64,000 nucleotides of DNA, taken from an uncultured Gammaproteobacteria bacterium. Its GTDB lineage: Bacteria; Patescibacteriota; Patescibacteriia; UBA9934. Positions 17,421 through 40,055 of the stretch are shown piece after piece; the first letter of the stretch is position 1, and each line of letters opens with the position of its first letter. The translations under genes were made by a program, and so were the position numbers. The notes under the pieces are model-generated. The model was not told the origin of the DNA, did not search any database, and saw only the letters and a list, made by a program, of their open reading frames with translations. The stretch covers positions 119,649 through 183,648 of the forward strand of contig CAZKGL010000001.1 in assembly GCA_964552565.1 (NCBI GenBank), read 5' to 3'.

Positions 17421-17844
17421 GGACGACATGAAATCCGCGATGAAGAGCAAGGACGCGGAAACGCTCGACACCGTGCGCATGCTGCTTGCGTCGCTCAAGA
17501 ACAAGGCGATCGACATGCAGAAGGAGCTCGACGACGCCGATGTCATGGCGGTCGTGAAGAGCGACCTCAAAAAGCTGAAGGACGGGCTGGACTCGTTCGT
17601 CGCCGCGGCGCGCGAGGACCTGGCAGAAAAAGCGCGCAAGGAGATGAAGGTGCTCGAGAAGTACTTGCCGGCGCAGATGAGCGACGAAGAGCTGGAACAG
17701 AAGGTCCGCGCAACGCTCGCGGAGCTCGGCATCACGGACGCATCCGGCATCGGCAAGGCGATGGGGCAGCTCATGGGCAAGCTGAAAGACTTTGCCGACG
17801 GCTCCCGCATCAAGGCGATGGTTGATAAAGTATTGAAAGGGTAG
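17398..17844 (+). CDS. yqeY: GatB/YqeY domain protein
   Basis: MTLYEQIKDDMKSAMKSKDAETLDTVRMLLASLKN... is the typical YqeY N-terminus. Overlaps the HAD gene by 23 nt. Confidence 0.8.
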   Translation: MTLYEQIKDDMKSAMKSKDAETLDTVRMLLASLKNKAIDMQKELDDADVMAVVKSDLKKLKDGLDSFVAAAREDLAEKARKEMKVLEKYLPAQMSDEELEQKVRATLAELGITDASGIGKAMGQLMGKLKDFADGSRIKAMVDKVLKG

Positions 17845-17953
17845 GGACTCGGGTGCGTCGTTGTGCTCCGCAACTGCGCTACGCCGCGGCGGCGACAAGT
17901 CGCCGGCGGCTGGGCGCAGACGTCTCCGCCCAACGACGCACCACTCGTCCCTC
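17844..17953. repeat. palindromic REP/MITE-like element, family A (copy 1, 110 bp)
   Basis: Inverted match to 39471..39559. Copy 1 carries an extra ~25-bp palindromic insert. The element is itself an imperfect ~100-nt hairpin. Confidence 0.7.
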
Positions 17954-17963
17954 GGAAGAAGAC

Positions 17964-19076
17964 ATGGGCACACTACGAAAAGCAATTCTCGCGGACCTCG
18001 TCCATTACGCGCTGCCGAAAAAGGAGGCGGAGGACCGCATGCGCGAGCTTGAGGAACTGACGCGCACCTACGGCGGCGTGGCGGTCGTGAAGACGATCCA
18101 GCGTCGCGCAAAGCCGGATTACCGCACCTTCATCGGGAAAGGGAAGGTCGACGAGGTGGCGGCGCAGGGCAAAGCGCTCGGCGCGGATCTTTTGCTTGTC
18201 AACGAAATCCTCAAGCCGCAGCAGCTGTACAACCTTGAAGAGCTCTTGCGCCCGGCGAAAATCCAGGTGTGGGACCGCATCGATCTCATTTTGCACATCT
18301 TCGACAAGCACGCGAAGACCGCGGAAGCGAAGCTCGAGATCGAGCTCGCGAGCATCCGCCACATGGGCCCGCGCATTTTCAACATGAGCGCCGAGCTCGG
18401 CCGCCAGCGCGGCGGTACCGGCACCCGCGGCGGTACCGGTGAAACGAACACCGAGGCGATGAAACGCCACTTGCGTGAACGCGAGCAGCACATCCTGCAG
18501 AAGCTCGAGAGATACCAGGGCACGCGCAACCTCCACCAGGAGCACCGCCGCCGACACCACAAGAAAACGGTCGCGCTCGTGGGCTACACAAACGCGGGGA
18601 AGACCTCGCTCCTCAACACCCTCGGCAAGCGTCGCGAGTTTGCGGCCAACAAGCTGTTTGCCACGCTCGATACTCGCGTGGCTGACGTGTATATCCCCGA
18701 GCTCGGCGAGACCGTGCTGCTTTCGGACACCATCGGGTTCATCCAGGGCCTGCCGCCGTCCCTCATCCGCGCATTCCGCTCCACGTTGTCCGAGGCCGCC
18801 ACCGCAGACCTGTTGCTGCATGTCATCGACGTGTCCGACCCGAAGTTTGGCGAGAAGATCGCGGTCGTCGAGGGCGTGCTCGACGCGATGGGCATCGCCG
18901 ACCATCCGCGCATGTACGTCTTCAATAAGATTGACGCCGTCCGAGACCCCGAACGCCTGCGCCGCGAACTCGGTGACTGCGGGGTCATCGTCTCCGCGGA
19001 GCGCGCCGTCGGCGTCGCGGAACTCAAGTCGGCGATTGCTCGCACGTTCTCCACAACCGCCCGCGTGTCGCCGTAG
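17964..19076 (+). CDS. hflX: GTPase HflX
   Basis: HflX N-terminal domain plus a G domain (GYTNAGKTSLLN...DTIGF). The start is taken at the ATG of MGTLRK. The upstream part of the track ORF lies in the repeat element. Confidence 0.9.
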   Translation: MGTLRKAILADLVHYALPKKEAEDRMRELEELTRTYGGVAVVKTIQRRAKPDYRTFIGKGKVDEVAAQGKALGADLLLVNEILKPQQLYNLEELLRPAKIQVWDRIDLILHIFDKHAKTAEAKLEIELASIRHMGPRIFNMSAELGRQRGGTGTRGGTGETNTEAMKRHLREREQHILQKLERYQGTRNLHQEHRRRHHKKTVALVGYTNAGKTSLLNTLGKRREFAANKLFATLDTRVADVYIPELGETVLLSDTIGFIQGLPPSLIRAFRSTLSEAATADLLLHVIDVSDPKFGEKIAVVEGVLDAMGIADHPRMYVFNKIDAVRDPERLRRELGDCGVIVSAERAVGVAELKSAIARTFSTTARVSP

Positions 19077-19135
19077 ACGAAGTGCGGTACAATAGGTGCA
19101 CTGAATTCCCCGTGCTTGTCCTTGTGGAGAATGTT

Positions 19136-20944
19136 GTGCGTCTCAGAAAATGTTCGTATCCCTTCATCCTCGCCGCGCTCGCGGCCGGCGTGGTGCTGTT
19201 TGCGCCCGACGCGTTCGCGCAGACGGATTCCGTCGAAGAGGTCGGCACCGCCGCGGGGTTCGGCACCGCCGGGCTCATGGAGATCGTCGGTACCATCATC
19301 TCCGTGGTGCTCGGCATCCTTGGCGTGGTCTTCCTGCTCCTCATCATCGCGTCCGGCTTCCTCTGGATGACGGCGGGCGGGAGCGAGGACAAGGTGAAGC
19401 GCGCGAAACGCATCCTCATCAACGCGACGATTGGCCTCGTCATCGTCCTCATGTCGTACGGCATCGCGTCGTTCATCTTGAACGCCATCGGGGACGCGAC
19501 CGGATTCGATGCGGACGGCGACGGAAGCTCGGTCTCGACCGAGCCGCGTTCGGGTTCGCTCGGCAGCGGCAGCATCCGCGACCACTATCCGGAGCGCAAC
19601 GCGACCGACATCGCCCGCAACACCCGCATCATCGTTACGTTCTCGGACGCGATGGACATCGAGTCGTTTATTACCGGCTACGACACGAACGACACGCCGG
19701 ACGACACGAGCGACGACACGACCGCGACCGCCATCAACAGCGACATGGTGCAGATTTACCAGTCCGGCGACGAGTCGACGACGCTCACCGACGTCAGCGT
19801 TGCGTTTACCGACGATTTGAAAACCTTCGTGTTCGACCCTGCGGAGTACCTCGGCAGCGCGACCGAGGACGTGTCGTACACGGTTTCCCTCAGCACGAGT
19901 ATCGAGACCGCGGACGGCGAGGACGCATTCACCGGCGTGTACAGTGGCGGGTATGAATGGTCGTTCGAAGTCGGCACGACCATCGACCTCGACCCGCCGA
20001 GCATCCAGAGCGTCATCCCGGTCGAGGGCCAGAGTTACGACCGCAACATCACGGTCGAGATTACGTTCGACGAAGCGATCGACCCGACGTCGGCGTCGGG
20101 GACCCGCGAGGCGGACAGCGGCTTCCAAAATATTCAGACGGTGGGCACGTCGGGCGCGCCGGAGGCGGGAACCTACGAGATCAGCAACGGCTACCGCACC
20201 GTAACCTTTACGTCTACCGACGCCTGCGGGACGAATTCGTGCGGCGAGACCATCTACTGCTTGCCCGCGAACGACAGCATCACGGTGACCGCGTACGCCG
20301 CCACCGCGGAGAGCGACCCGCCGCAAGCGGACAGCTTCCCCTACGACGGTATCGTCGACACTGCCGCGAACAGCATGGACGGCGACGGCGACGGGACCGC
20401 GGGCGACGACTACGAATGGAGTTTTACGACGACCGGCGACATCAACCTCGAGGGCGCGACTATCGAGTCGATCGCCCCGGACATCCTCGCCGAAGGACAG
20501 GCGCTCGACCAGGACGTGGTGATCACCTTCGACGACATCATGCGCACCTCGACCCTGACGAGCGACAATATTACGCTCGAAAACTACGAATCCTCGACCG
20601 GTTCGACGCACGAGATGTACTACCTGCCGCGTGCGACGAGCCTGGACAGTTCCGGCGCGGAAGTGACGTCGGATACGCAGACGCCGGTGCAGACGCAGGT
20701 GACGGTCGGCCACGGCATCTTCCTCGAGTCGGTCGACGGGCTGACGTACCTCTACGGCGTCATGGTCGGCGAAGGCGTGGAGAACCAGTACCAAAACTGT
20801 TATAGCCCGGCCGAAGGTCCGGACGCGACCGGCGGCGCGTGCGGCGTCGACGACAACTCGCCGTCATGCTGTAACGGTTCCGCCTCGTCCGAGACGTGCG
20901 ATTTCTTCCCGGACGCGACCACCACGACCTCGACCTCCTCATAA
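19136..20944 (+). CDS. secreted/surface protein with CPR-type T4SS-pilin-like N-terminal domain (paralog A)
   Basis: Signal peptide, then a two-TM hairpin with the motif FLWMTAGGSEDKVKRAKRIL. C-terminal ~470 aa is an Asp/Thr-rich extracellular region. The start is ambiguous, from the track GTG at 19082 to the GTG at 19136. Confidence 0.6.
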   Translation: MRLRKCSYPFILAALAAGVVLFAPDAFAQTDSVEEVGTAAGFGTAGLMEIVGTIISVVLGILGVVFLLLIIASGFLWMTAGGSEDKVKRAKRILINATIGLVIVLMSYGIASFILNAIGDATGFDADGDGSSVSTEPRSGSLGSGSIRDHYPERNATDIARNTRIIVTFSDAMDIESFITGYDTNDTPDDTSDDTTATAINSDMVQIYQSGDESTTLTDVSVAFTDDLKTFVFDPAEYLGSATEDVSYTVSLSTSIETADGEDAFTGVYSGGYEWSFEVGTTIDLDPPSIQSVIPVEGQSYDRNITVEITFDEAIDPTSASGTREADSGFQNIQTVGTSGAPEAGTYEISNGYRTVTFTSTDACGTNSCGETIYCLPANDSITVTAYAATAESDPPQADSFPYDGIVDTAANSMDGDGDGTAGDDYEWSFTTTGDINLEGATIESIAPDILAEGQALDQDVVITFDDIMRTSTLTSDNITLENYESSTGSTHEMYYLPRATSLDSSGAEVTSDTQTPVQTQVTVGHGIFLESVDGLTYLYGVMVGEGVENQYQNCYSPAEGPDATGGACGVDDNSPSCCNGSASSETCDFFPDATTTTSTSS

Positions 20945-20953
20945 CGTACGGCC

Positions 20954-23900
20954 ATGTCACGCTTCCGACTTCGCCATGTCCTGCCATTCCTCGCCGGTCT
21001 TTCCTTGATCGGCGTGTTGGCGTTTACGCCGGACCTTCTTGCGCAGAGCGAAAGCCTGACGGAGGTCGGCGATGCATCGGGTCTCGGCAGCGAGGACCCG
21101 CGTATCATCATCGCCAACATTATCCGGACGTTCCTGACGGTCCTCGGCGTTCTTGCGGTGCTCATCGTCCTCTACGGCGGCTGGGTGTGGATGACGGCGG
21201 GCGGGAATGCGGAGAAGGTCGAGAAGGCGAAGAAGATCCTCATCCGCGGCGGTATCGGCATCGCGATTATCCTCATGTCGTGGGCCATTACGACGTTTGT
21301 CATTACGGCGCTTCTTGATTCGACCGGCGGGAGCGGCGGGAGCGGCGACGACAGCGATGGTTCGGGCGGCGGCGTCCTCGGCGGCGGCAGTACGACGAGT
21401 TTCAGCGTGACCGACTACTCGCCGGAAGGCGCGGTGTCCATCCGCAACGTCCAGCTGCGCGTGACGTTCTCAAAGACGCTCGACGACGAGACGGTCGAGG
21501 GCAACATTGTCGTGACGAACGCGTCGAGCGGGGAGGCAGTGGACGGCGCCATTACCGTCAGTGGGAACAAGGCGACGTTCGTCCCGAGCGCGGCCTGCCC
21601 GTCGCCCAACGAAGACCGTTCCTGTTTTGACGCGGACACGGAATTTACCGTGACGGTTTCGGAAGCCATCGAGAGCTCCTCCGGCACTGCGCTCACCTGC
21701 GGCGCGGACGACTGTACGTCGAGCTTCACGACCGGCAGCCTCGTCGATACCGAAGACCCGGTCGCGGAAATCACGGATCCGGAGCGCGGCGACGGGGTCG
21801 AGGCGGGCAGCGTGGAGACCATCCAGGTCCATGCGACCGATGACACGGAAGTCTCCGGAGCAGATTTTTCGCTCGATGAGGAGGAATTCGATTCGGTCGG
21901 CGCGGAAGGTGACGACTTGAGCGACGTGACGATTGAATCGACGTGGGACACGACCGAACTCACGGTGGGGCAGGACTACGAAATCTCCGTGACGGTCACG
22001 GACATCGCGGGGAACACGGATGGCGTTTCCGTCGACGTCACTGCGCGGGGCGCGTGGTGCTTTAACGACGAGATCGACGAGGAATACGGAGAAACGGGAT
22101 TGAACTGCGGCGGCGACTCGTCGAGCGCGGAGTATTGCGGCGCATGCGACGGTTCGAGCTGTACCGAGGATTCAGAATGTTCCAGCGGCAGCTGTGTCGA
22201 CGGCGTCTGTACCACCTTGCCGGAGATCGAGAGCGTCTCGCCGGGCAGCGGCGCGGTCGGGACGTACGTCACGGTCAGCGGCTCCGGCTTCGGCACGAGC
22301 ACGGGGACGGTGGCGTTCACATCGGAGGACGGGACCACCACGGTCGAAGCCGACATCCCGTCGTGCAGCGACGGCTGGTCGGACACCGAGATCGTCGTCG
22401 AGGTGCCGGAGGGCGCGGGCGACGGCCCGATTACCGTGACGACGGACGATGACCTTTCCGACGCGACGGACGATGACGCGGGCGCGCTCATCGACGATTT
22501 TGACGTGAACGATACCGAGCGGCCGAAGCTATGCTCGCTCTTCCCGGACGAAGGCGAGTCGACCGACGGGACGACGCTCTCCGGTTTGGACTTTGGCGAC
22601 GAGCAGGGGAGCTCGACCGTGTCGTTCGGGACGTCCGCCGCCGGCTCGTATACGAGCTGGGAAGACACGTCGGCCAGCGTCACCGTCCCGGCCTTGGAGG
22701 ACGGTGAGTATGACGTGGTCGTGACCGTCGATGGCGTCGAGTCGAACGCGGTGACGTACACCGTGGAAGAGGACACGACCGGCGACCCGGTGATTACCGG
22801 CATCGACCCGTCCGAGGGCGCGGTCGGCGACTACATCACAATCAGCGGTGAAAACTTCGGCATCCTCGTCGGTACCGTCCGTCTTGTCGACGATGCGGGC
22901 AACGAGGCGGTCGCTGAAGTCGATTTCCCTGAGGAATGCGCGGAGGACTATTGGGAGCCGACCGAGATCACCGTCATCGTCCCGGAGGAGTATCAGAGCG
23001 GCGACGGGCTCAGTGCCGGCGCGTTTGACGTGTACGTGGTGACGCAGGAGGGCGCCGAATCGGACACGACGAGTTTTACCGTCGAGGACGGCGACCCGTC
23101 GCCGGGTATTTGTGCGATTGATCCTGACGTCGGCCTCGCGGGGACGTCGGTAACGATCTATGGCGAGCGCCTCGGGTCTGACGAGGGTTCGGTCGCGTTT
23201 TACGACGAGGACGGCGACGTGGCCGCGACGGTCGACGAAGACGGTTGGTCGAGCGATGCAATCTCGCTGACGGTCCCAAGCGGGGCCGAGACCGGCCCGG
23301 TGACGGTGACGTCGTCTGCGGGCGATGAGAGCAACAGCATTGATTTTGAAGTCTCCGATGCCGGCGCTGCGGAAACCGAGACGGAGCCGGCATCGTACGG
23401 ATGGTACTTCTCGACCGGCGAAATCCCGGAGACCCCGGAGCTGCTTGTGGAGTGTTCGGACGACCGCATCAGCGGCGTGCCGAACAACCGGTTCACGTCT
23501 GACGGCGTCTGCGTGGAGGCAATGGTGTACGGCGAATTCTCCACGGTCATGAACGAAGGGTCGATCACGGACGCGCTGACGGTGGAAATGTGTACTGCCG
23601 CCGGCGAACAGCCGTGCGACACGACGACCGACGTCACCGGCGACGGCACGCTTGAGGTATCCTCGTCGACGACGAGCACGACGTTCAGCTGGTCACCGTC
23701 GTCGACCTTTACCGCAGACACGACGTATCGAGTAACCGTCTCGACCGCCGCGATGTCGGACGAGGCGCAGGCGCTCGACGACGACGTATCGTGGGAGTTC
23801 ACGACCGCATCGTCCTCGGAGACGTGCGAGGTCGACACCGTCCATGTCGTTCCGAGCGCGGCGACGATTACCGAACAATACGCGACCGAGCAGTTTACCG

Positions 23901-26900
23901 CGGTGCCCGCCGACGGCTGTGTCGTCGTCGACGGCGACGACTATACGTGGGACTGGTACGTCTACAGCGGCGTCGCAAACCTGACCAGCGACGACGAGTG
24001 CGCGGGCGGCACGACCGACTGCACGCTTGTTGAGGCGCTTGCGGAGGGCGAAGCGGATGTCATCGCGGAAGAAACCGCAAGCACGACGAGCGGCCAGGCA
24101 GACCTGACCGTGGCGTTTACCGATCCGTACGTCTCGGATTACTGGCCGGATTGCGACCAGGCGTGCAGCAACGGCGAGATCGGGGCGAGTTTCAATACTG
24201 CGGTCACGAGCACTTCGCTCGAAACCGACGGCCGCGTCGAACTGTACGAATGCGACAACGAGCTCTGCGCGGTCGGTCCGGCGGACGAGTACGGGTCGTA
24301 TGACGTGGTCGCGACCGATTGCGACGACGATGACCCGTCGTTGTGCGCGGGGGTGGCGATTTCACCCGATGCGGAGCTGACCCCGGGGACGTATTACCGC
24401 GCCGTCATCAGCCGTCGCGTGGAAACCCCGAGCGGCGTTTCGTTGACGCGCACAAACTACGATACCGGCTTCTCGTGGGTGTTCCGGGTGATGGAGGGCG
24501 ACGCGACGTGCGCCGTCGAACGCATTGAAGTGACGCCGGTCGACGCGGTTGCGGACGCCATCGGCGACCGCCAGACCTTCACGGTCGACGCGTACGGCAC
24601 GCCGGACGCGTGTTCCGTCGCGGGCCAGCTCTTGTCCGCATCGGACTACGACTGGTCGTACGGCGCATGGTCCGACGACGGGAGCGACGCGGCAGTCGAT
24701 GTCGCGGATTGGTGGGATGTCGGGTCTTCGAGCGGTTTTGTCGACACAAGCATCGAAGACGTCCCGGAGGGCTGCACGGCCTCGTGTATCCCGTCCGGCA
24801 GCACGGCGCTCGACGCCGTGTGCGGCGATGGAACCGTGGACAGCGACGCGGGAGAAGAGTGCGAAGACGGGAACACCGCGGACGACGACGGGTGTTCGTC
24901 GAGCTGTCTGTATGAAGGGTCGGAGACGACCTGCGGCGACGATGTCGTCGATACGTACGAGGAGTGCGACGACGGCGGAATCGCGGACGGCGACGGATGC
25001 TCCTCCGTCTGTCTGAACGAGGGGTCCCGCGCGATCGGCACGACGTGCGGCAATGATGACGTCGCATACGAAGCGGACCAGGGCGGCGAGGATTGCGACG
25101 ATGGCAACGTCGTGAACGGCGACGGATGCTCCTCCGTCTGTCTGAACGAGGGGTCGCTGACCCTCACCGATGTTGGCGGCGCCGTGTGCGGCGACCTCGA
25201 TATTACCGAGCCGTACGAAACCTGCGATGACGGCGGCACGACGGACGGCGACGGCTGCTCGTCCAACTGCACCCGCGAAGGCGCGGACGGCAGCTACGGG
25301 ACCTGCGGCAACGACAGCACGGAGCAGGGGACGTACGGCGAAGGCGAGGATTGCGACGGCGAAGAATGGTGCACGGATTCCTGCACGTACGGCGGATCGT
25401 CCGTCACGTACTCCGAGCCCTCGTTCTGCGGCGACGGCACGGCCGGCCTCGGCGAAGTGACCGCCTGCGAATCGTCGGGCGGCGACGACAACACCGACTC
25501 GCTCCAGCTTGCGTACATTACCGACGACGCTGCACAGGAGGTCGATACGGACACGAACGTCGCGATTGCAACCGTCACGGTGACTGAGCCCGAGTCCGGC
25601 CTTTCGACGGACGTGACGTACACGCTGGCGTGTTCCGCCGCGACCGACACGGACTGCTCGGATCCGGAAACGTATGGCGTCGGCCTCGGGAACTGCTGCA
25701 TTGCGCGCCCGACCGCGACCCTGTACCCGAACGGCACGGATGCCTGCCGCAACGCGGCGATCTACGGCATCTTCACCCAGGAGATGGACCTCGGCTCGTT
25801 CAGCGTCACCGACACGGACGGCGACACGACGCCGCGGATGTACCTCGTGCTCGACACCTCGACGACCGACGACGGCGCGTGTCCGTACGACGACGAGCTC
25901 GCATGGCTCGGCGAGGACTCTTGGATTGCGGAGACATGGCTGCGCATCCGCCGCATCGTGACCGGCCACGCCGCGGAAGCGGCGCCGGGCGAGGACGAGT
26001 GCGTCCTGCCGGTGTCGAGTTACGCCCAGGAAGCGCAGGACGACGGGACGTTCAAGGTGCGGATGCGCTACGGCGAGGCGCTCGAGGCGGACGTGACCTA
26101 CACGCTGCGCATTGAGGTCGACAGCGACAACACGGACACGAGCAAGGACGGCGTGCTGTCCGCGGACAATGTCGCCATGTACGACGCCGACGGCGTGATT
26201 GAAGAAACATTCTCGACCGGCAGCGAAATCTGCACGCTCGACAGCGTTGTTGTGGAAGATACGGACGACGAGAGCCCGTATTACTTCTCGCAGTACGGCG
26301 AGGAGCATACCTTTACGGCAACCGCGTACTCGTACAACGGCTCGACCCGCCAAGAGCTCGAATCCATCGACGATGTCTACTCGTGGACGTGGTCGAGCTG
26401 GGAGGAGGAGGCGAGCGAGTCGGTCGTGGATGTCGCGCAGAGCACGACCACGGGCACTGAGGACGAAGCGGCGGTCGAGGCGACCGGCGAAAACGGCGAG
26501 GCGGTCATCGTCGCGACCGCTACCATTGAGGACGACGTGGTCGGCGACAGCGAGGGCGAGGAGGTGACCGGCTCGGAGGATGTCGTGGTCTACCTTTGCC
26601 AGAATACGTGGCCGGACATTACGGCGACCGAATTCCCTTGGAGCGACGACGAGGACGGTATTGATAACGGCGCGGAAGAGGGGAACGGCTGGATGAACTT
26701 CTCGACGTACTTCTGCCGCGACAGCGGGGAAGCGGACGACACAAGCGACGACCTGCCAGGCGTCAACGTCGTGTATGCAACGGATTACTCGAGCGCCGAC
26801 GACATCCTGAAGGAGTATCTCTTCGAGGTCGACGACGGCAGCGGGGACGCGATCGGCTTCCGTATCGTGTCGAATTCCGAGTACTTGGGCCCGGAACAGT

Positions 26901-29900
26901 GGTTTGAGGCCCAGGGCTTCTCGGGTTCGCCGCAGACGACCACCATCGACGGCTTCCAGGCGGTCACCGATGGCCGCACGACGTACGTCGCGGCGCCGAA
27001 CCAGTCGGACACCTCGCTGTACTCGAATATCTACGTCATTTCGTACAACGAAGGGGCGAGCGAGGAAACGACCGACCTGTACGACCAGATCCTCGAAAAC
27101 ATCTCGTTCGCCATCAACGTCGACAACGACTGCGACGCGGAGGACGGCGAAACCTGTACGGACGCATGGAGCACGCTCCAGCGCGACACGAAGCGCCTTG
27201 CGGACCTCACGACGGTCGCCGCGCTCGTTGAGACCTATGTCGACGAGAACGGCGTCGTGCCGCCGCTGTCGTCCGGTACGTACGTCCGGAGCATGGGGTC
27301 AAGCGTCTGGGATTCGTGGGGCGACCTGCTCGGCGCGGCGCTCGGCGACTCCGATCTGCCGACCGACCCGCGCAACACCTATGACGGCTGCGGCGCGGAT
27401 CCGTTCGCGTCCTACGACGAGGATACGTGCGTGAACGAAACCGCCGGCCAGTACCTCTGTCCGGAAGGGTCGTACGCCTACCATTACCGCGCGGTCGGCA
27501 CCGACGGGGTCACGCTGTATGCGGACCTCGAGTATGACGATGCGGCATGGGTGAACCCGATCGACGCCGATACGTCGGACGACATCGACTACGAGGTGTA
27601 CAGCGCCATGAGTTCCGGCGACGGCTTTACGTCGACCGCGTTCTGCGACGGCTCCTCGAGCGGCGGCACCGTGTACGGCTCGACCGGTTCGTGCGGCGAC
27701 GGCGTCGTGAACACGAGCATCGACAGCGACGGCGACGGCACGGCGGACACGGTGGAGACGTGCGAGATCGGCGAGTCGGGCGGTACTGCCGAATGGTGCG
27801 ACAGCGACCTTGCGAGCGACGGCGACGGGGACGGCGATCCGCTCAACGATTGGGACGGCTCGGTGAGCCAGACCTGCAACAGCGCCTGTACCGGCTGGAC
27901 CGACGACAGCGACGCCGAGTGCGTCCTGTGGTCATGCGGCGACGGCGTCGTGGACACCACCGACGGCGAGGAATGCGACGACGGCGCGCTGAACGGGCAG
28001 TACGGCTATTGCAGCAACACCTGCTCGTACGACGACGCGTTCTATTGCGGCGACGGGTCGCTTGCGGGCAGCGAAACCTGCGACTGCGGAGCGCCGGGCG
28101 AGAGCACGATCGTCGACCCGACGCAGTCGCGCCCCTACGGCGGCACGAGCTATAGCTGCGTGACGACCGAAGGTAACGGCACCTACGACGAAAATCCGTA
28201 CAACACCTGCGCATGGGATTGCCAGGGCCCGGCGTCGTACTGCGGCGACGGCGTCGTCGACAGCGGCGAAGAGTGCGACGGCGACACCGAGCACTGGGAA
28301 GGCAAGCTCTGCAATCTGTACTCCACTGCGGATACGTTCGGCCAGGCGTGCGAGACGGACGCGGATTGCGAGCGGTACTCGGATGCATCGCTGCCGAACG
28401 CCTTGTGCGGCGACGCGAGCAACGACGACTTCGAGGCGTGTCCGGAAACGACGGTCTGCGTCGCGGGCACCACAAGCCTCATCGGCACGGAGTGTACGGC
28501 CGACAGCGACTGCGGGACCGACGGCGCCTGCTCGGACATCGCCTACCAGACCTACCGCACCCGGACGTGCGAGGACGACGGTGCGAGTGGGGAAACGTGC
28601 GACTGGGACGTCCCGTCCCTCGGCCTCTACGGCATCTCGTGCACGGCACTCGGGAGCTGCGGCGACGGCACGGTGGACGACAATGAGGAGTGCGACGACG
28701 GCAATGACGATTCGACCGACTCGTGCACGAACGAGTGCACGGACAATGTCTGTGGCGACGGGTACCTCTACGTCGGCGAAGAGCAGTGCGACGAAGGGAC
28801 GGAAAATGGACAGGGCTGCAGTTCGAGCTACGAATCGACCTGCACATCCTGTTCGGAGACGTGCCGGTACGAAACGTCGTCCGGCGACTTCTGCGGCGAT
28901 GGCGAGATCAACGGCGACGAGTACTGCGACGCCTACGCCATGCCGTACCAGTATGCGATCAGCGTGACGTACGATGAGGCCGAATCTGAAGACGACTTCA
29001 ATCCGTTCGCCGGCGAGACGGTCGTGTGGACGTATGGCGACTCCTGTGACACGCTCGGTGAGACCGTTATCGATTATGCGGACGAGTCGGACGAGTCGGA
29101 TGTCACCTACACCTGTTCCATGATTGGGTACTGTAACGGCGGCGACAGCAGCTACGGCGGCAACGGCGACGAGTGCTTGACCGACTCGGACTGCGATGAA
29201 GGCGACTGCGTCATGACCGTCTGCGCGGATGATTGCGACAACACGTGCCCGGAGACATACGAGTCCACCGCGCTCCTCCTCACCGCGGAGCAGCCGGGCG
29301 CGACCGCAGAGACTGCGGTCGACCTGTACACGTACTCCGACAGCGGGGAAGCGGAGGTGCCGAACTCGGCGACGATCACGTTCCCTGCCTGTACCATCGC
29401 GTCTTCGCTCGTTGCGGACATCTCGATGGACAACGTGGAACTGACCGAGTACTACATCGTCTTCGTGACCGACACGTCGGGATCTATGGATGACAGCTTC
29501 GATGGTTCCCAGACGTCCGGCGTCCCCGTCGACGAGCAGCGTATTACCGCCGCGGTCGACGTGCTCCGTGAGGCGATCCAGAGCCTGTACGATGCAAGCG
29601 AAAACATGCATATCGCGCTCGTGCAGTATGACGACACTGCGTACGAGGAAACGTCCGGCGACGGCGGGCCGACGGCATTCACGGACGCCGACCAGGAATC
29701 CAACCTTCTGTCCACCATCAACAGTTACTACGTTGCGGGCGGCACGACAGAGACCGACGACGGCCTTGCCATGGCGAAGGCGCTCCTCGACAGCGAGGCG
29801 TCGGACCGCACCTCGAACGTCCGGAAAATCATCGTCCTCCTCTCGGATGGGGAAGAAAATAGCACGTCCGATGCGGGAAGCGTGGCGGACGAGATCAAGG

Positions 29901-30316
29901 CCGTCGACCTCGACGAGGACGGCGTGGACGATTACGAGCTCTACACCGTCGCGCTGACGAGCGTCGACACGCTCATTACGACCATGAACGGCTGGTCGAG
30001 CAATAGCGGGAGCGCGCTCGCATCGAACAACATCGACTACGCCTACGACGGCGACACGGAAGATGAGCTTGAAGACTCCTACGAGGACATCGTCGCGTCC
30101 ATCGCGCAGCCGACCATCGCCATCATCTCGTCCGACGGCTCGACGACCTATACGACGACCGACGAGTTTGAAGAGGGTTCCGGGGTCGACTTCCCGTGGC
30201 CGGAAGGGTTCTCGTGCGACCAGGACGACGAACAGGAGCTGCCGATCCGTATTACGTTCCCGGGCGAAGGCACGATCGAAATCAGCAATGTCCGGTTCGA
30301 GTATTGCGCCCCCTAG
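20954..30316 (+). CDS. giant surface adhesin-like protein (3120 aa): T4SS-pilin-like N-terminus, 4 IPT/TIG domains, Cys-rich DUF4215-like repeats, C-terminal vWA domain
   Basis: N-terminus is paralogous to the previous gene (WVWMTAGGNAEKVEKAKKIL). IPT/TIG modules at about 22.2-23.4 kb (VSPGSGAVGTYVTVSGSGFG). CGDGxVDxxEECDDGNxxxGDGCSSxC repeats at about 24.8-25.5 kb and 27.7-28.9 kb. MIDAS DTSGSMDD vWA domain at about 29.45-30.0 kb. Confidence 0.75.
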   Translation: MSRFRLRHVLPFLAGLSLIGVLAFTPDLLAQSESLTEVGDASGLGSEDPRIIIANIIRTFLTVLGVLAVLIVLYGGWVWMTAGGNAEKVEKAKKILIRGGIGIAIILMSWAITTFVITALLDSTGGSGGSGDDSDGSGGGVLGGGSTTSFSVTDYSPEGAVSIRNVQLRVTFSKTLDDETVEGNIVVTNASSGEAVDGAITVSGNKATFVPSAACPSPNEDRSCFDADTEFTVTVSEAIESSSGTALTCGADDCTSSFTTGSLVDTEDPVAEITDPERGDGVEAGSVETIQVHATDDTEVSGADFSLDEEEFDSVGAEGDDLSDVTIESTWDTTELTVGQDYEISVTVTDIAGNTDGVSVDVTARGAWCFNDEIDEEYGETGLNCGGDSSSAEYCGACDGSSCTEDSECSSGSCVDGVCTTLPEIESVSPGSGAVGTYVTVSGSGFGTSTGTVAFTSEDGTTTVEADIPSCSDGWSDTEIVVEVPEGAGDGPITVTTDDDLSDATDDDAGALIDDFDVNDTERPKLCSLFPDEGESTDGTTLSGLDFGDEQGSSTVSFGTSAAGSYTSWEDTSASVTVPALEDGEYDVVVTVDGVESNAVTYTVEEDTTGDPVITGIDPSEGAVGDYITISGENFGILVGTVRLVDDAGNEAVAEVDFPEECAEDYWEPTEITVIVPEEYQSGDGLSAGAFDVYVVTQEGAESDTTSFTVEDGDPSPGICAIDPDVGLAGTSVTIYGERLGSDEGSVAFYDEDGDVAATVDEDGWSSDAISLTVPSGAETGPVTVTSSAGDESNSIDFEVSDAGAAETETEPASYGWYFSTGEIPETPELLVECSDDRISGVPNNRFTSDGVCVEAMVYGEFSTVMNEGSITDALTVEMCTAAGEQPCDTTTDVTGDGTLEVSSSTTSTTFSWSPSSTFTADTTYRVTVSTAAMSDEAQALDDDVSWEFTTASSSETCEVDTVHVVPSAATITEQYATEQFTAVPADGCVVVDGDDYTWDWYVYSGVANLTSDDECAGGTTDCTLVEALAEGEADVIAEETASTTSGQADLTVAFTDPYVSDYWPDCDQACSNGEIGASFNTAVTSTSLETDGRVELYECDNELCAVGPADEYGSYDVVATDCDDDDPSLCAGVAISPDAELTPGTYYRAVISRRVETPSGVSLTRTNYDTGFSWVFRVMEGDATCAVERIEVTPVDAVADAIGDRQTFTVDAYGTPDACSVAGQLLSASDYDWSYGAWSDDGSDAAVDVADWWDVGSSSGFVDTSIEDVPEGCTASCIPSGSTALDAVCGDGTVDSDAGEECEDGNTADDDGCSSSCLYEGSETTCGDDVVDTYEECDDGGIADGDGCSSVCLNEGSRAIGTTCGNDDVAYEADQGGEDCDDGNVVNGDGCSSVCLNEGSLTLTDVGGAVCGDLDITEPYETCDDGGTTDGDGCSSNCTREGADGSYGTCGNDSTEQGTYGEGEDCDGEEWCTDSCTYGGSSVTYSEPSFCGDGTAGLGEVTACESSGGDDNTDSLQLAYITDDAAQEVDTDTNVAIATVTVTEPESGLSTDVTYTLACSAATDTDCSDPETYGVGLGNCCIARPTATLYPNGTDACRNAAIYGIFTQEMDLGSFSVTDTDGDTTPRMYLVLDTSTTDDGACPYDDELAWLGEDSWIAETWLRIRRIVTGHAAEAAPGEDECVLPVSSYAQEAQDDGTFKVRMRYGEALEADVTYTLRIEVDSDNTDTSKDGVLSADNVAMYDADGVIEETFSTGSEICTLDSVVVEDTDDESPYYFSQYGEEHTFTATAYSYNGSTRQELESIDDVYSWTWSSWEEEASESVVDVAQSTTTGTEDEAAVEATGENGEAVIVATATIEDDVVGDSEGEEVTGSEDVVVYLCQNTWPDITATEFPWSDDEDGIDNGAEEGNGWMNFSTYFCRDSGEADDTSDDLPGVNVVYATDYSSADDILKEYLFEVDDGSGDAIGFRIVSNSEYLGPEQWFEAQGFSGSPQTTTIDGFQAVTDGRTTYVAAPNQSDTSLYSNIYVISYNEGASEETTDLYDQILENISFAINVDNDCDAEDGETCTDAWSTLQRDTKRLADLTTVAALVETYVDENGVVPPLSSGTYVRSMGSSVWDSWGDLLGAALGDSDLPTDPRNTYDGCGADPFASYDEDTCVNETAGQYLCPEGSYAYHYRAVGTDGVTLYADLEYDDAAWVNPIDADTSDDIDYEVYSAMSSGDGFTSTAFCDGSSSGGTVYGSTGSCGDGVVNTSIDSDGDGTADTVETCEIGESGGTAEWCDSDLASDGDGDGDPLNDWDGSVSQTCNSACTGWTDDSDAECVLWSCGDGVVDTTDGEECDDGALNGQYGYCSNTCSYDDAFYCGDGSLAGSETCDCGAPGESTIVDPTQSRPYGGTSYSCVTTEGNGTYDENPYNTCAWDCQGPASYCGDGVVDSGEECDGDTEHWEGKLCNLYSTADTFGQACETDADCERYSDASLPNALCGDASNDDFEACPETTVCVAGTTSLIGTECTADSDCGTDGACSDIAYQTYRTRTCEDDGASGETCDWDVPSLGLYGISCTALGSCGDGTVDDNEECDDGNDDSTDSCTNECTDNVCGDGYLYVGEEQCDEGTENGQGCSSSYESTCTSCSETCRYETSSGDFCGDGEINGDEYCDAYAMPYQYAISVTYDEAESEDDFNPFAGETVVWTYGDSCDTLGETVIDYADESDESDVTYTCSMIGYCNGGDSSYGGNGDECLTDSDCDEGDCVMTVCADDCDNTCPETYESTALLLTAEQPGATAETAVDLYTYSDSGEAEVPNSATITFPACTIASSLVADISMDNVELTEYYIVFVTDTSGSMDDSFDGSQTSGVPVDEQRITAAVDVLREAIQSLYDASENMHIALVQYDDTAYEETSGDGGPTAFTDADQESNLLSTINSYYVAGGTTETDDGLAMAKALLDSEASDRTSNVRKIIVLLSDGEENSTSDAGSVADEIKAVDLDEDGVDDYELYTVALTSVDTLITTMNGWSSNSGSALASNNIDYAYDGDTEDELEDSYEDIVASIAQPTIAIISSDGSTTYTTTDEFEEGSGVDFPWPEGFSCDQDDEQELPIRITFPGEGTIEISNVRFEYCAP

Positions 30317-30324
30317 CGTGAACT

Positions 30325-31152: not shown

Positions 31153-31154
31153 GC

Positions 31155-31850: not shown

Positions 31851-31855
31851 CGTCT

Positions 31856-33737: not shown

Positions 33738-33759
33738 TGGCATGGCCTAGATTGGCGTT

Positions 33760-35016: not shown

Positions 35017-35046
35017 CCGGGGTCCCCGCACCCCGGCTTGCCGTTG
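35014..35046 (+). terminator. terminator hairpin (AGCCGGGG-loop-CCCCGGCT family) overlapping the ftsA stop codon
   Basis: TAGCCGGGGtccccgcaCCCCGGCTT. The stop codon TAG is the first 3 nt of the stem. Confidence 0.55.
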
Positions 35047-35067
35047 CGCAATCGTGCTCCGCGGGCC

Positions 35068-35155
35068 GGGTCCTGCCGCCTTCGCACCCTGTTGGGTGCT
35101 CGACTCGTCGGACTCGTCTGCGCGCCCAAGCAGGGGACCTGCTCGGCGTCACCCG
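35068..35155. repeat. 88-bp REP-like element, family B (copy 1)
   Basis: Identical to 37155..37242 (direct). Contains the imperfect hairpin CCTGTTGGGTGC...GCGCCCAAGCAGG. Confidence 0.75.
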
Positions 35156-35377
35156 GCCACCCTTCTCTTCGACGGGCCCGATATCTCAGCGTCATGCCCA
35201 CCCGCTTTTCCCGAATTGGGGAGGAGGGGGAGTTTTTTATACGCACAGTTCATCCACAGGCATTCGTGGAGGGTTGGGAGGGGGTGTGTTAGGCTGTGAG
35301 TACAAAATTTATCTGAGGTCAGCGAAATTGAATACATAAAGTGTTCAGTGAGAGAGGCGCGTGAACACCAAGTTGGT

Positions 35378-36649
35378 ATGGCGGAGTTCAAACCGGAAAT
35401 CGAAACAGCAGCCAAGATTAAAGTCGTCGGGATCGGCGGTGGCGGGGGATCGGCGCTCATGCGCATGATCGCCGAGAAGCTCCGCGGGGTGGAATTCATC
35501 GCCGTGAACACCGACGCCCAGGCCCTCCACCAGAATACGGCTCAGGTAAAAATCCCGATCGGGAAGACCGCGACCCGCGGCCTTGGTGCGGGCATGAACC
35601 CGGAGGTCGGCCGGCGCGCCGCCGAAGAGAACGCGAACGACATCCGCACGGCGATCGCCGGTGCGGACATGGTGTTTTTGACCTGCGGCCTTGGCGGCGG
35701 CACCGGGAGCGGCGGCGCGCCGGAGGTCGCCAAGATCGCCCGCGAGGTGGGTGCGCTGACGGTCGCCGTGGTCACCAAGCCGTTCGGTTTCGAAGGCGCC
35801 CAGCGCAAGCGCATTGCCGATGACGCATACCTCGAACTCGCCGAGCACGTCGACACGCTCATCACCATCCCGAACGACCGCGTGCTCCAGATCATCGACA
35901 AGAAGACGTCGCTCCTTGAAGCCTTCAAGATCGTTGACGACGTGCTCCGCCAGGGCGTGCAGGGGATCTCGGAAATCATCACCATCCCCGGCCTCATCAA
36001 CGTCGACTTCGCGGACGTAAAAGCCATCATGCAGAACGCCGGTTCGGCGCTCATGGGCATCGGCCGCGCCTCCGGAGAAAACCGCGCGGTGGAGGCGGCA
36101 AAGCAGGCAATTGCGAGCCCGCTCCTTGAGATCTCCATCGACGGCGCCAAGGGCATCCTCTTTACCGTCACTGGAAGCTCGGACCTCGCCATGTACGAGG
36201 TTGCCGAGGCCGCGAAGATCATTACCGGTTCCGCGGACGACGACGCCCGCGTCATTTTCGGCGCCAACGTCGACGAGAGCCTTGAGGACGAAGTGCGCAT
36301 TACGGTCGTCGCAACCGGCTTTGACAGCCGCGACCACCGCCGCGCCCCGTCGCTCGCCGGCGACGTCGAGGTCGCGCCGCAGGGGAGCTGGAGCGCCCCC
36401 CGCCGCGACGACTATCGTTCCGCCCCCAGCCGGAGCAGCAGCTATATGGCGCCGAAGGAGTCGCCGTTTGGCGAGCGCCGCGTTCCGTCTGCCGCCTCGG
36501 CCATAACGCCCGTCGCACCGCCTCCGGTCCGCGAGCCCCTGACGGCCGCCGAAGAGAGGAAGCCGGTCGCTCCCGCGCCGCAGCCCGCCCAAAAGGAGGA
36601 AGACGATGAGCTCGGCATCCCGGCGTTTATCCGTCGCAAGATGATGTAA
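35378..36649 (+). CDS. ftsZ: cell division protein FtsZ
   Basis: KIKVVGIGGGGGSALMRM tubulin signature and the T7 loop. Pro/Ala-rich C-terminal linker ending in the conserved IPAFIRRK peptide. The start is taken at the ATG of MAEFKPE. The track GTG at 35348 is an alternative. Confidence 0.95.
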   Translation: MAEFKPEIETAAKIKVVGIGGGGGSALMRMIAEKLRGVEFIAVNTDAQALHQNTAQVKIPIGKTATRGLGAGMNPEVGRRAAEENANDIRTAIAGADMVFLTCGLGGGTGSGGAPEVAKIAREVGALTVAVVTKPFGFEGAQRKRIADDAYLELAEHVDTLITIPNDRVLQIIDKKTSLLEAFKIVDDVLRQGVQGISEIITIPGLINVDFADVKAIMQNAGSALMGIGRASGENRAVEAAKQAIASPLLEISIDGAKGILFTVTGSSDLAMYEVAEAAKIITGSADDDARVIFGANVDESLEDEVRITVVATGFDSRDHRRAPSLAGDVEVAPQGSWSAPRRDDYRSAPSRSSSYMAPKESPFGERRVPSAASAITPVAPPPVREPLTAAEERKPVAPAPQPAQKEEDDELGIPAFIRRKMM

Positions 36650-36651
36650 CT

Positions 36652-37128
36652 GTGTACTGCCCGGTTTGCAACGCGAAATCCACGAGGGTCATCGATTCGC
36701 GCCTGACCGCGGATTCGCTTGCCATCCGCCGCCGCCGCGAGTGTGAGCGCGCAAAATGCGGATTCCGGTTCAGCACGGTGGAAGAGATCGAATTACTCGA
36801 TGTGACGGTCGTGAAACGGAACGGCCGCCGCGAGTCGTATTCGCGGGAAAAGATCGAATCCGGGCTGAAGAAGTCGCTCGAAAAGCGTCCGCACACCGAC
36901 GCGCAGTTCCGCACCCTCGTTCACACCATCGAGCGCGACATCCAGAAGCGCCGCGGCGCGGAGATTACGAGCAGGGATATCGGAGAGATCGTCATGGACC
37001 GTCTGCGCGCCTTCGACAAGGTTGCGTATATCCGCTTTGCGTCGGTCTACTCGTCGTTCGAAGATGTCGGAATGTTCGTCCAGGAGTTGAAAAAGCTTGG
37101 CGCGGGAAATAAAAAGCGGAAAAAGTGA
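36652..37128 (+). CDS. nrdR: transcriptional repressor NrdR
   Basis: MYCPVCNAKSTRVIDSR zinc ribbon plus an ATP-cone domain. Confidence 0.9.
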   Translation: MYCPVCNAKSTRVIDSRLTADSLAIRRRRECERAKCGFRFSTVEEIELLDVTVVKRNGRRESYSREKIESGLKKSLEKRPHTDAQFRTLVHTIERDIQKRRGAEITSRDIGEIVMDRLRAFDKVAYIRFASVYSSFEDVGMFVQELKKLGAGNKKRKK

Positions 37129-37154
37129 TATACTGCAGATAAGGAATATGCGTC

Positions 37155-37242
37155 GGGTCCTGCCGCCTTCGCACCCTGTTGGGTGCTCGACTCGTCGGAC
37201 TCGTCTGCGCGCCCAAGCAGGGGACCTGCTCGGCGTCACCCG
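37155..37242. repeat. 88-bp REP-like element, family B (copy 2)
   Basis: Identical to 35068..35155. Confidence 0.75.
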
Positions 37243-37261
37243 ACGCTTGCACCGTTCCAGT

Positions 37262-38665
37262 ATGGAATTCAGGAGGACAAAAATCGTGTGCACCATCGGA
37301 CCGGCGTCATCGAGCCCCGGGATGTTGGTGCGGATGTTGCGCGCCGGTATGGACATGGCGCGTTTGAATTTTTCTCATGGCACCCACGAGGACCACGCGC
37401 GGCTCATCCGCGCCGTCCGCGCCGCGTCCCGCAAGGCGGGGAAGGCGGTGGCGATCCTCCAGGACCTCCAGGGCCCCAAGATCCGCGTCGGTGATCTCCC
37501 GAAGGACGGCGTCGTCTTGCACAAGGGCGAACACATCACGCTGACGACCGAAGACCGCGCCTACGAAACGGACGGCCCTATCCCCGTGACGTACCACCGG
37601 CTCCACCGCGACGTCGCGAAGGGCCACCGCATCCTGTTTGACGATGGGACGATTGAGGTCGAGGTCGCCAAGGTGCGCGGCAAGCGCATCACGGCGCTCG
37701 TGAAGGTGCCGGGGACGCTGAAGTCCCACAAAGGCATGAACCTGCCGGACTCCGAGGTGAGCGCCGACCCTTTTACGACCAAGGACCGCGAGGACCTGCT
37801 CTTTGGCGTGGCGCAGGGCGTCGACTGGGTGGCGATGTCGTTCGTGTCATGTGCCGACGACATCATGACCGCCCGCGCCGTTGCGCGGAGCGCCGCCCGG
37901 GCCCATGGCGTGCGCACCCCACTCATCTTCGCAAAGATCGAACTGCGCAGCGCGCTTGACCGGTTCCCCGAGATCCTCGAGGCTGCGGACGGCATCCTGC
38001 TCGGGCGTGGCGACCTGGGCGTCGAAATTCCGCCCGAAGAGGTGCCTATCGTGCAAAAGGACGTTGTCGAGGCCTGCCGCCGGGCGGGGAAGCCGGTCAT
38101 CGTGGCCACGCAGATGCTCAACTCGATGGTGGACAACCCTCGTTCGACCCGCGCGGAGACCTCCGACGTCGCCAACGCCGTGTTCGACCACACCGACGCG
38201 GTGATGCTCTCTGCCGAATCCGCGACCGGGCGTTATCCCGTCGTCACCGTGCAGGCGATGGCGGCGGTCATCCGCGAGGCCGAGCAATCACGATACGACG
38301 ACATCGCCCACATCTGCGTGACCGTCCCTGGGCTCGAAGAGGCGATGGCGCAGACCGTGCACGTCCTTGCCGCGAGCGGGATTATTGGCGCCGTGGTTGC
38401 GGTGGCGTCGCACGGCGATCTCGCGCGCAAGCTGAACATGTACCGTCCGTCCGTCCCCATCTACCTCGTGACGCCCGACCCCGCGGTCGCCCGCCAGTCG
38501 GTCGCGTTTGCCGGGGTGACGCCGCTCGTCATGGACGACGCGGCCGGGAGCTTAGCGGCGCGTGTCCACACAAAAGTCCGCCGCGAGCGGCTGGTGCCGC
38601 GCGGCGCGGCGATTGCCCTCCTCACGGGTTCGGTCCCGCACACGCAGCTGAGTATTCTCCGCTAG
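37262..38665 (+). CDS. pyk: pyruvate kinase
   Basis: KIVCTIGPAS...MARLNFSHG...MVARGDLGVEIP motifs. Alternative start at the GTG at 37286, which has a perfect AGGAGG 8 nt upstream. Confidence 0.9.
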   Translation: MEFRRTKIVCTIGPASSSPGMLVRMLRAGMDMARLNFSHGTHEDHARLIRAVRAASRKAGKAVAILQDLQGPKIRVGDLPKDGVVLHKGEHITLTTEDRAYETDGPIPVTYHRLHRDVAKGHRILFDDGTIEVEVAKVRGKRITALVKVPGTLKSHKGMNLPDSEVSADPFTTKDREDLLFGVAQGVDWVAMSFVSCADDIMTARAVARSAARAHGVRTPLIFAKIELRSALDRFPEILEAADGILLGRGDLGVEIPPEEVPIVQKDVVEACRRAGKPVIVATQMLNSMVDNPRSTRAETSDVANAVFDHTDAVMLSAESATGRYPVVTVQAMAAVIREAEQSRYDDIAHICVTVPGLEEAMAQTVHVLAASGIIGAVVAVASHGDLARKLNMYRPSVPIYLVTPDPAVARQSVAFAGVTPLVMDDAAGSLAARVHTKVRRERLVPRGAAIALLTGSVPHTQLSILR

Positions 38666-38934
38666 CCGGAAAAACCTGCAGCCTGCGTGGGGAGCTGGTC
38701 GATGCGCTCCTCAATCCACCGCTCCGCGCTTGGCACGATGAGCTGGCCGAGGAGGTAAATGACGATGCCGAAGACGATGGTGCCGCCGATCGCCATGCCA
38801 AAGCCGCGGACGATGCCGTCGAGGAACGCGCGGGGGAGGCGTTTGCCAGCCCGGAGCGATTCAAGGTAGTCTCGGTGGGCACGGGCGATCGTTTCTGCAA
38901 GCGCCTGTTCCGATACGCGTTTTTCGTCTGTCAT
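38662..38934 (-). CDS. hypothetical small membrane protein
   Basis: One or two TMs (GMAIGGTIVFGIVIYLLGQLIV). The start is trimmed to the internal ATG to avoid a divergent overlap with the next gene. Overlaps the pyk stop by 4 nt. Confidence 0.35.
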   Translation of the reverse strand: MTDEKRVSEQALAETIARAHRDYLESLRAGKRLPRAFLDGIVRGFGMAIGGTIVFGIVIYLLGQLIVPSAERWIEERIDQLPTQAAGFSG

Positions 38935-38951
38935 ATCCGGCACAGTACCAT

Positions 38952-39464
38952 ATGCGGCTGATGCTTTTGAATGGGCCATGGGGCGTGGGCAAGAGTACCG
39001 CGGCGCGGCTGTTGCACGCCGCGATCCCCGGCTCGTACCATCTCGAGCTCGACGCGCTCCGTCGCAGTATCAGCGGCTACGAACGCGACCGCCAAAAGAG
39101 CTTCTTTTTTTCGTTGACGCTCGCAAAGGCGATTATGGCGGAATGCTTTGCGGACGGGCGTGATGTCATCGTCGACAAGATGTTTTTTGCGCCCGAGGTG
39201 ATTGACGGCATCCGGGCGTTCGCAGGGGAGCGCGGTGCCGGGGTATTCGAGATCATCCTTTGGACCGACAACCGGACGCTCCTCTCGCGCGGCGCGACGC
39301 GCGGCTATTCGAGCGGCGTGTTCTCCATCGAAAAGGCACAGCGCTCGTGGGACCTCATTGAGCGCCTCATCCCTCAGCGCCCGCAAGCAACTGTCATTGA
39401 TACCACCTCTCTTTCTCCTCATGACACCCTGCGTAAGATTCATGCGGTTATTGCTGCCGGGTGA
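38952..39464 (+). CDS. P-loop NTPase (AAA_33/zeta-toxin-like small kinase)
   Basis: Walker A LLNGPWGVGKST at the N-terminus. 170 aa. Confidence 0.6.
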   Translation: MRLMLLNGPWGVGKSTAARLLHAAIPGSYHLELDALRRSISGYERDRQKSFFFSLTLAKAIMAECFADGRDVIVDKMFFAPEVIDGIRAFAGERGAGVFEIILWTDNRTLLSRGATRGYSSGVFSIEKAQRSWDLIERLIPQRPQATVIDTTSLSPHDTLRKIHAVIAAG

Positions 39465-39470
39465 CGGCAT

Positions 39471-39559
39471 AGAGGGACGAGTGGTGCGTCGTTGGGCGGA
39501 GACGTCTGCGCCCAGCCGCAGTCGCGCAGTTGCGGAGCACAACGACGTACCCGAGTCCC
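39471..39559. repeat. palindromic REP/MITE-like element, family A (copy 2, 89 bp, inverted)
   Basis: Reverse-complement match to 17844..17953. Confidence 0.7.
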
Positions 39560-39586
39560 GATCGGACCGAAAGCGCCGTCTGCAAA

Positions 39587-39617
39587 CAAAAGACACCCGG
39601 ACGAAGGGTGTCTTTTG
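39587..39617. terminator. bidirectional intrinsic terminator
   Basis: AAAAGACACCCggacgaaGGGTGTCTTTTG. Confidence 0.75.
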
Positions 39618-39621
39618 TTTC

Positions 39622-40013: not shown

Positions 40014-40055
40014 GATGTCCTGAAAAACTCACGATCGTGAGTTTTTCAGGACATC
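40014..40055. terminator. 42-bp perfect palindrome (terminator of the gene at 40054..40245)
   Basis: GATGTCCTGAAAAACTCACGA|TCGTGAGTTTTTCAGGACATC. Confidence 0.7.

Follow-up and report, generated by a model that had tools for sequence, protein, structure and literature searches.

The 64-kb stretch of contig CAZKGL010000001.1 analyzed here (the window) comes from Candidatus Uhrbacteria, a lineage of the Candidate Phyla Radiation (CPR; Patescibacteria), with a genome of about 839 kb. The 370-aa HflX protein encoded in it is identical to a recorded Candidatus Uhrbacteria HflX (MBI1908339.1). The window is compact, with about 3.6 kb of intergenic DNA (about 5.6%), and two of its spacers hold inverted, nearly identical copies of a palindromic sequence. 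One copy lies between yqeY and hflX, and the other follows a P-loop kinase gene. We consider that this sequence is probably a small non-coding, non-autonomous palindromic insertion element, similar to the hairpins formed by doublets of repetitive extragenic palindromic (REP) sequences, known as REPINs, and to miniature inverted-repeat transposable elements (MITEs). The two copies, with their scores under a covariance model built from them, and the features around them are as follows.

Copy 1: 17844 to 17953, plus strand, 110 nt, in the spacer that separates the stop codon of yqeY from the start codon of hflX; covariance model score 135.6 bits.
Copy 2: 39472 to 39559, minus strand, 88 nt, between the stop codon of the AAA_33 kinase gene (39462-39464) and the bidirectional terminator; covariance model score 112 bits.
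yqeY: 17398 to 17844, plus strand, Pfam YqeY with an E-value of 8.8e-41; stop codon TAG at 17842-17844.
hflX: 17964 to 19076, plus strand, assigned by Pfam; true ATG start at 17964, 370 aa.
AAA_33 P-loop kinase gene: 38952 to 39464, plus strand, Pfam E-value 4.4e-15, upstream of copy 2.
Bidirectional intrinsic terminator: 39584 to 39620, no single strand, common to the kinase gene and the convergent DUF378 gene, and kept in relatives without the element.

Aligned end to end, the two copies are reverse complements of each other that match in 85 of 88 columns (96.6%). At one end of the element, the match is 100% over 48 nt. The differences amount to three substitutions and one indel. Copy 1 is longer by 22 nt, having 26 nt (17880-17905) at the hairpin tip in place of 4 nt of copy 2. 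The 20-nt arm of the element occurs at only these two places in the window with up to 3 mismatches allowed (0 expected from shuffles). Its 12-nt core, GGTGCGTCGTTG, is found in the window only in the four arms of the two copies, and an internal 20-nt near-palindrome only inside them. The parts of the element, in the coordinates of copy 1, are listed below.

Left terminal arm: 17844 to 17863, plus strand, GGGAC-TCG-GGTGCGTCGTTG, paired with 17931-17951 in every fold.
Right terminal arm: 17931 to 17951, plus strand, CAACGACGCACC-ACTC-GTCCC.
Copy-1-specific centre: 17880 to 17905, plus strand, 26 nt, an extra GC-rich stem at the hairpin tip.
Internal 20-nt near-palindrome: 17912 to 17931, plus strand, GGGCGCAGACGTCTCCGCCC, a possible side hairpin that would give a three-way junction as an alternative fold.

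The outer stem is robust and consists of GGGAC paired with GTCCC (5 bp), a small asymmetric bulge of 3-4 nt and then 12 perfect pairs. The arms are paired in all folds with RNA and DNA parameters, and the 12-nt core is present in all four of them. The interior is a continued hairpin helped by the extra stem in copy 1 and two side hairpins in copy 2, and the consensus structure of the two copies has 2 branch points. The tip differs in length by 22 nt between the copies, and both versions of it are paired. As to palindromes of the kind that make up REP arms, the element contains the 20-nt near-palindrome on one side and a weak one of 4-9 bp on the other. The RNA minimum free energy of copy 1 is -70.7 kcal/mol (z = -6.7 against shuffles). 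For copy 2 it is -48.4 kcal/mol on the plus strand, which is the mRNA sense (z = -4.3), and -38.6 kcal/mol on the minus strand (z = -2.2). DNA folding parameters leave this picture unchanged.

A preliminary description of this DNA, made from its letters, had reported two inverted copies of about 95% identity, each of them a long imperfect hairpin. Both statements agree with the measured identity and with folds that go beyond shuffles on both strands and under both sets of parameters. It had also placed the first base of copy 1 on the last base of the yqeY stop codon, which is correct, and the products that it named for the flanking genes, YqeY, HflX and a P-loop kinase, are those found by Pfam. 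The coordinates of copy 1 are kept, and the start of copy 2 is moved from 39471 to 39472. The insert of copy 1, given there as 25 bp and palindromic, does form its own stem in the fold; its net size is 22 nt. The description had further attributed spurious open reading frame (ORF) extensions to the element. There is one stop codon in the element across all six frames, and the peptides GADVSAQRRTTRPS and AVAEHND are indeed shared by the translations of both copies. Because the element is nearly free of stop codons in the six frames, a false 407-aa hflX ORF can be read from GTG at 17853.

The history of the two sites was examined in related Uhrbacteria, whose contigs were reached through homologues of HflX and of the kinase, with two relatives compared at each site. 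The yqeY-hflX spacer is 119 nt in the window versus 2 nt in L026 (HflX 87% identical). In L024 (HflX 84% identical) it is 49 nt and contains a small terminator-like hairpin. YqeY has 148 aa in the window, in L026 and in L024. The spacer between the kinase and DUF378 genes is 157 nt in the window. It measures 41 nt in L027, whose kinase is 82% identical, and 59 nt in L028, where the identity is 80%. Its terminator is kept almost base for base in L027 and L028, and only the 88-nt element is missing. Since the relatives have their genes in the same order as the window on either side of both junctions, what was added is the element alone and not a larger segment. About 82 kb of fetched loci, mostly from these relatives, contained no copy of the element, and no internal repeats were found within these loci. 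The empty sites show both copies to be lineage-specific insertions, which are younger than the divergence from relatives with 80-87% protein identity. That the element was added at two unrelated sites, with copies still about 97% alike, is the main evidence for an insertion-type mobile origin.

A further relative with an 80% identical HflX (L025) carries a 318-aa gene (5882-6838 of that contig) on the opposite strand between yqeY and hflX. This gene marks the junction as a recurrent insertion site in the group.

Both copies lie within 8 nt of the upstream stop codon and have opposite orientations relative to transcription. Copy 1 occupies 110 of the 119 nt of its spacer, and yqeY and hflX, which are on the same strand, probably form one operon. 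Copy 2 begins 7 nt past the stop codon of the kinase gene and ahead of the terminator at 39584-39620. Both copies should be transcribed with the upstream gene, copy 1 between yqeY and hflX and copy 2 in the 3' untranslated region of the kinase mRNA. The upstream gene is on the plus strand at both sites, whereas the copies have opposite orientations, so that the transcripts carry complementary versions of the element. A co-transcribed element would place a very stable stem-loop after the upstream cistron. By analogy with REP sequences, such a stem-loop would most plausibly block 3' exonucleases or serve as a site of processing. An intrinsic (Rho-independent) terminator was considered and rejected, because neither copy is followed by a U-tract; the terminator scan called neither copy, and the real terminator is the one at 39584-39620. 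Rfam at gathering thresholds identified only tmRNA and two tRNAs in the whole window and no family for the element. At E<=1, the two element regions gave only noise of 16-22 bits.

Several known families of bacterial repeats share properties with this element. REPINs are REP doublets that form hairpins and are mobilized through RAYTs (REP-associated tyrosine transposases) of the Y1 type, for example in Pseudomonas fluorescens SBW25 (Bertels & Rainey; PMC3337134, PMC3116915). The spacer of REPINs is variable in length and sequence between copies, and the hairpin is kept (PMC3337134). The element resembles them in its conserved inverted arms, its variable-length spacer that keeps the hairpin, its size of about 100 nt, its extragenic position and the lack of an obvious target duplication. 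Unlike REPIN populations, which have tens to hundreds of copies, it is known here from two copies (64 kb of about 839 kb), and it shows no sequence similarity to REPINs. Its arms do not clearly have the form of REPs, which are imperfect palindromes flanked by a conserved tetranucleotide on the 5' side, and no RAYT was found among the approximately 55 genes of the window. To our knowledge, no RAYT is known in CPR bacteria.

Bacterial MITEs with terminal inverted repeats include Correia/NEMIS of Neisseria, RUP of Streptococcus pneumoniae and ERIC/IRU of enterobacteria, all of them non-coding and 100-150 nt long. They are gene-adjacent and co-transcribed, form long hairpins, have indel length variants and show filled and empty sites among strains. 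The element is like them in its terminal inverted repeats, non-coding nature, position next to genes, long hairpin, length variant and filled and empty sites. In these families, however, target duplications are well defined (TA in the case of Correia), copies number dozens to hundreds, and a parent insertion sequence (IS) is known for some. The element has two known copies, no consistent target duplication and no IS in the window. The element thus resembles a REPIN or a MITE of the Correia/RUP/ERIC type, and its membership in either is unproven.

Two further families are less close. In Escherichia coli, REP sequences and the bacterial interspersed mosaic elements (BIMEs) that they form are 3' stabilizers of mRNA; the REPs are about 35 nt long and bind IHF, gyrase and Pol I. 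Like them, the element is a stable GC-rich stem-loop directly past a stop codon, within an operon or before a real terminator. In contrast to the protein-bound REPs of about 35 nt, it is 88-110 nt long and known from sequence alone. Palindrome-associated transposable elements (PATEs) derive from the ends of IS200/IS605, have a left-end hairpin that differs from the right-end one and enter the DNA 3' of a fixed target of 4-5 nt. The element shares with PATEs its short length, its non-autonomous nature, subterminal hairpins that would be recognized on single-stranded DNA and the lack of a target duplication. It differs from them in that its two sites have no fixed target motif in common.

An insertion element of the REPIN or MITE kind would be built here from terminal inverted arms of about 20 nt (GGGAC, a bulge of 3-4 nt and GGTGCGTCGTTG) around a variable centre that extends the hairpin. 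It would be copied in trans by an enzyme that recognizes the arms and is encoded elsewhere in the genome, outside the window. We lean slightly toward a route through single-stranded hairpins (REPIN/RAYT-like or IS200/IS605-like) over cut-and-paste transposition of a DDE-type MITE, because there is no consistent target-site duplication, folding extends over the entire element and the tip varies between the copies; two copies cannot decide this point. We regard a classical DDE-type MITE as unlikely. Such an element would be an internally deleted IS with terminal repeats that are bound as double-stranded DNA by the transposase of a full-length IS elsewhere in the genome. It would account for the terminal inverted repeats of about 20 nt, which open with perfect GGGAC/GTCCC, for the length of 88-110 nt, for the lack of coding capacity and for the filled and empty sites (two empty relatives per site). 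In the orientation of copy 1, the borders read TA...TC around site 1 and TC...TC around site 2, so that a 2-bp TC/TC duplication is possible at site 2. At site 1, however, TA stands on the left and TC on the right. The TC at 17952-17953, next to the right arm, is also present in copy 2 and is, being common to both copies, likely part of the element and not a duplication. The target duplication that is expected at every copy of a DDE MITE was thus not found, in what is a weak test with two copies. There is also no IS or DDE gene in the window, and the complementarity reaches far past the terminal repeats into the interior, for which a DDE MITE has no need.

The sequence could instead be a structured RNA or DNA signal selected by the host, such as a hairpin for mRNA stabilization or processing or a protein-binding site. 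It would then be immobile and would owe its second copy to a single event of recombination or gene conversion. The position of both copies in transcribed spacers directly past stop codons, their very stable folds and the finding of no transposase among the window genes are in line with such a signal. So is the G to A substitution in an arm of copy 2 (element position 12), which gives a G-U wobble in the mRNA sense and an A-C mismatch on the other strand; this is a single event with 50% prior odds. However, the opposite orientations relative to transcription yield complementary RNAs and not one RNA, and the element is absent from the orthologous sites in four relatives, as a conserved regulatory feature should not be. 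There is no Rfam match even at E<=1, and a real terminator is already present downstream of copy 2. We therefore judge a signal of this kind to be quite improbable.

It is very improbable that the inverted copies are recombination sites at the ends of a 21.5-kb invertible or mobile segment (17954-39471) with strain-variable genes for giant surface proteins. The copies do bracket genes for a 620-aa pilin-like protein and a 3120-aa protein, which are variable in length between strains. Relatives without the element, however, keep the order and orientation of the genes on both sides (yqeY, hflX and the pilin-like gene; PK, DUF5665, kinase and DUF378), and on this synteny a composite transposon or invertible segment was rejected. 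The segment also holds the core genes ftsA, ftsZ, nrdR, pyruvate kinase and ybeY, and the window has no recombinase. The geometry of integron attC sites was considered as well. An attC site has R'' (RYYYAAC) at its 5' side and R' (GTTRRRY) at its 3' side and lies in a cassette array beside an integron integrase. In the element, GTTG precedes CAAC, which is the reverse of R''...R' in either orientation, and the window contains no integrase and no cassette array, so that an attC identity was rejected. Finally, an assembly or chimeric artefact of the window is hardly credible: site 2 is without confirmation from an independent assembly, yet the ends of copy 1 recur at the same junctions in three independent assemblies, and three substitutions plus an indel between the copies are not expected from a simple mis-join.

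The independent assemblies are contigs of the Logan collection from SRR12113420 and SRR12113422, which are 100% identical to the window, and the metagenome-assembled genome (MAG) GCA_016177675.1 from NCBI, which belongs to the same species and is 99.8-99.9% identical. Contigs L001 and L002 stop 42 nt and 30 nt inside copy 1, respectively. On the other side, L004 starts 30 nt and the MAG contig (L003) 12 nt before the end of copy 1. Every short-read assembly of this population thus breaks inside copy 1 (window 17873-17942), and both of its ends are reproduced. Copy 1 is real and not an assembly artefact. For copy 2, no independent assembly contig was found to confirm the site. The contig breaks behave like those at a repeat in a de Bruijn graph. 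With k = 31, which we take to be the Logan value, the 30-nt overhangs of L002 and L004 would equal k-1. Copy 2, with its A at position 12, does not contain the 31-mer that opens copy 1. The break of L002 therefore hints at a further copy or variant, a sign on which we do not rely, loss of coverage in a GC-rich hairpin being an alternative. Elsewhere in the window, the Logan contig L030, 100% identical to it, ends at 40395 inside the tRNA gene at 40367-40440, which suggests another repeated or variable sequence at that gene.

The following results count against the reading as a REPIN- or MITE-like insertion element. The copies known so far are two, within 64 kb of a genome of about 839 kb. A third or diverged copy was found neither in the window by sensitive BLASTN nor in 146 kb (the window plus the related loci) by the covariance model. 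There is no solo arm in the window or in the approximately 82 kb of related loci. Searches for the arm patterns gave nothing beyond chance in GTDB species genomes (185,579 genomes) and JGI metagenomes, and no match in viral contigs, plasmids and phages. An exact 31-mer had 0 matches in the GTDB set, and a gapped pattern of both arms had 0 in JGI metagenomes. A one-arm pattern had 10 and 9 matches in these two sets, respectively; they lie in unrelated taxa and extend over the pattern length only, by which they are taken to be chance matches. A protein-database search with six concatenated translations of the element found no match. Among the approximately 55 window genes, Pfam found genes for housekeeping, the cell surface and glycosyltransferases but no transposase, recombinase or Y1/HUH gene. 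The two sites have neither a consistent target-site duplication nor a common target motif, two copies being a weak test. In addition, the contig breaks could have arisen from poor read coverage of a GC-rich hairpin, and the role of the RNA is drawn by analogy only. With respect to its distribution, the element family does not occur widely. Either this species-level lineage is its only host, or its copies are cut off where the contigs of fragmented MAGs end, as in L003.

In the light of these results, the proposal in the preliminary description of a REP-like or miniature mobile element is upheld in part. The sequence is indeed an intergenic repeat with a palindromic structure, and comparison with the empty orthologous sites shows that both copies were inserted, as would be expected of a miniature mobile element. 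Two signs of mobility that the description had suggested looking for, target-site duplications and an associated transposase, did not appear, the borders differing between the sites and Pfam giving no such gene in the window. The description had also held that a lack of structural conservation in relatives would speak, in part, against its proposal, and the element is missing from the relatives at both sites.

The window has other repeats and features. A second small repeat family is a perfect palindrome of 30-32 nt, TCCGAAGCTCAGCTTC|GAAGCTGAGCTTCGGA, at 7990-8021 and 56171-56202. Its copies lie in two intergenic spacers 48 kb apart with 97-100% identity, and neither has a clear U-tract. A perfect 38-nt palindrome at 40016-40053, directly downstream of the DUF6496 gene (40054-40245, minus strand), is probably the terminator of that gene. 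A direct repeat of about 180 nt (49982-50160 and 50754-50932) is 99% identical over its first 126 nt and about 92% overall. It takes in the DNA upstream of two neighbouring genes without a Pfam match, together with their first codons (50114-50746 and 50885-52096) and contains a 19-bp hairpin, GGGGACCGACGGTACGCAG...CTGCGTCCGTCGGTCCCC, with no Rfam match at gathering thresholds; it may be a duplicated leader or promoter. Between 50885 and 56038, most of the direct families (D1-D19) that the repeat finder listed are not non-coding elements. They are coding repeats, made up of Cys/Asp-rich metal-binding motifs of the MopE type, within three neighbouring genes for secreted proteins.

The first 2205 nt of the window have a GC content of about 0.50 versus about 0.63 elsewhere and carry an RNHCP-domain gene and a phosphotransferase gene of the APH family. 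This region may have been acquired horizontally. The region from 19082 to 30316 encodes a 620-aa T4SS-pilin/Big_5 protein and then a 3120-aa ORF with Cys/Asp-rich repeats. The alignment of MAG GCA_016177675.1 to the window breaks near 25198-25246, where the offset shifts by several tens of nt. The T4SS-pilin/Big_5 gene is called with 602-620 aa across assemblies.

The kind of element described here is already well known, and apart from its CPR host and its effects on assembly and ORF calling it is an ordinary bacterial repeat. No description of REP- or MITE-like repeats in CPR bacteria was found in the literature searched. For those who work with such genomes, the element is a practical cause of MAG fragmentation and of falsely extended ORFs, one of them being hflX read from GTG-17853. 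We put forward only tentatively, and with more doubt than belief, that a population of hairpin elements is active at present in this ultra-small genome of an episymbiotic CPR bacterium, with a REPIN/RAYT-like or unrecognized enzyme to drive it, and that the two copies are what can be seen of it. If this is true, it would be the first time that miniature mobile DNA is documented within a genome of Patescibacteria, and its copies would remodel the junctions of operons, as where yqeY is uncoupled from hflX. An 839-kb genome with a recently copied hairpin element shows that CPR genomes, compact as they are, continue to tolerate repeats of a selfish or semi-domesticated kind and may make use of them.

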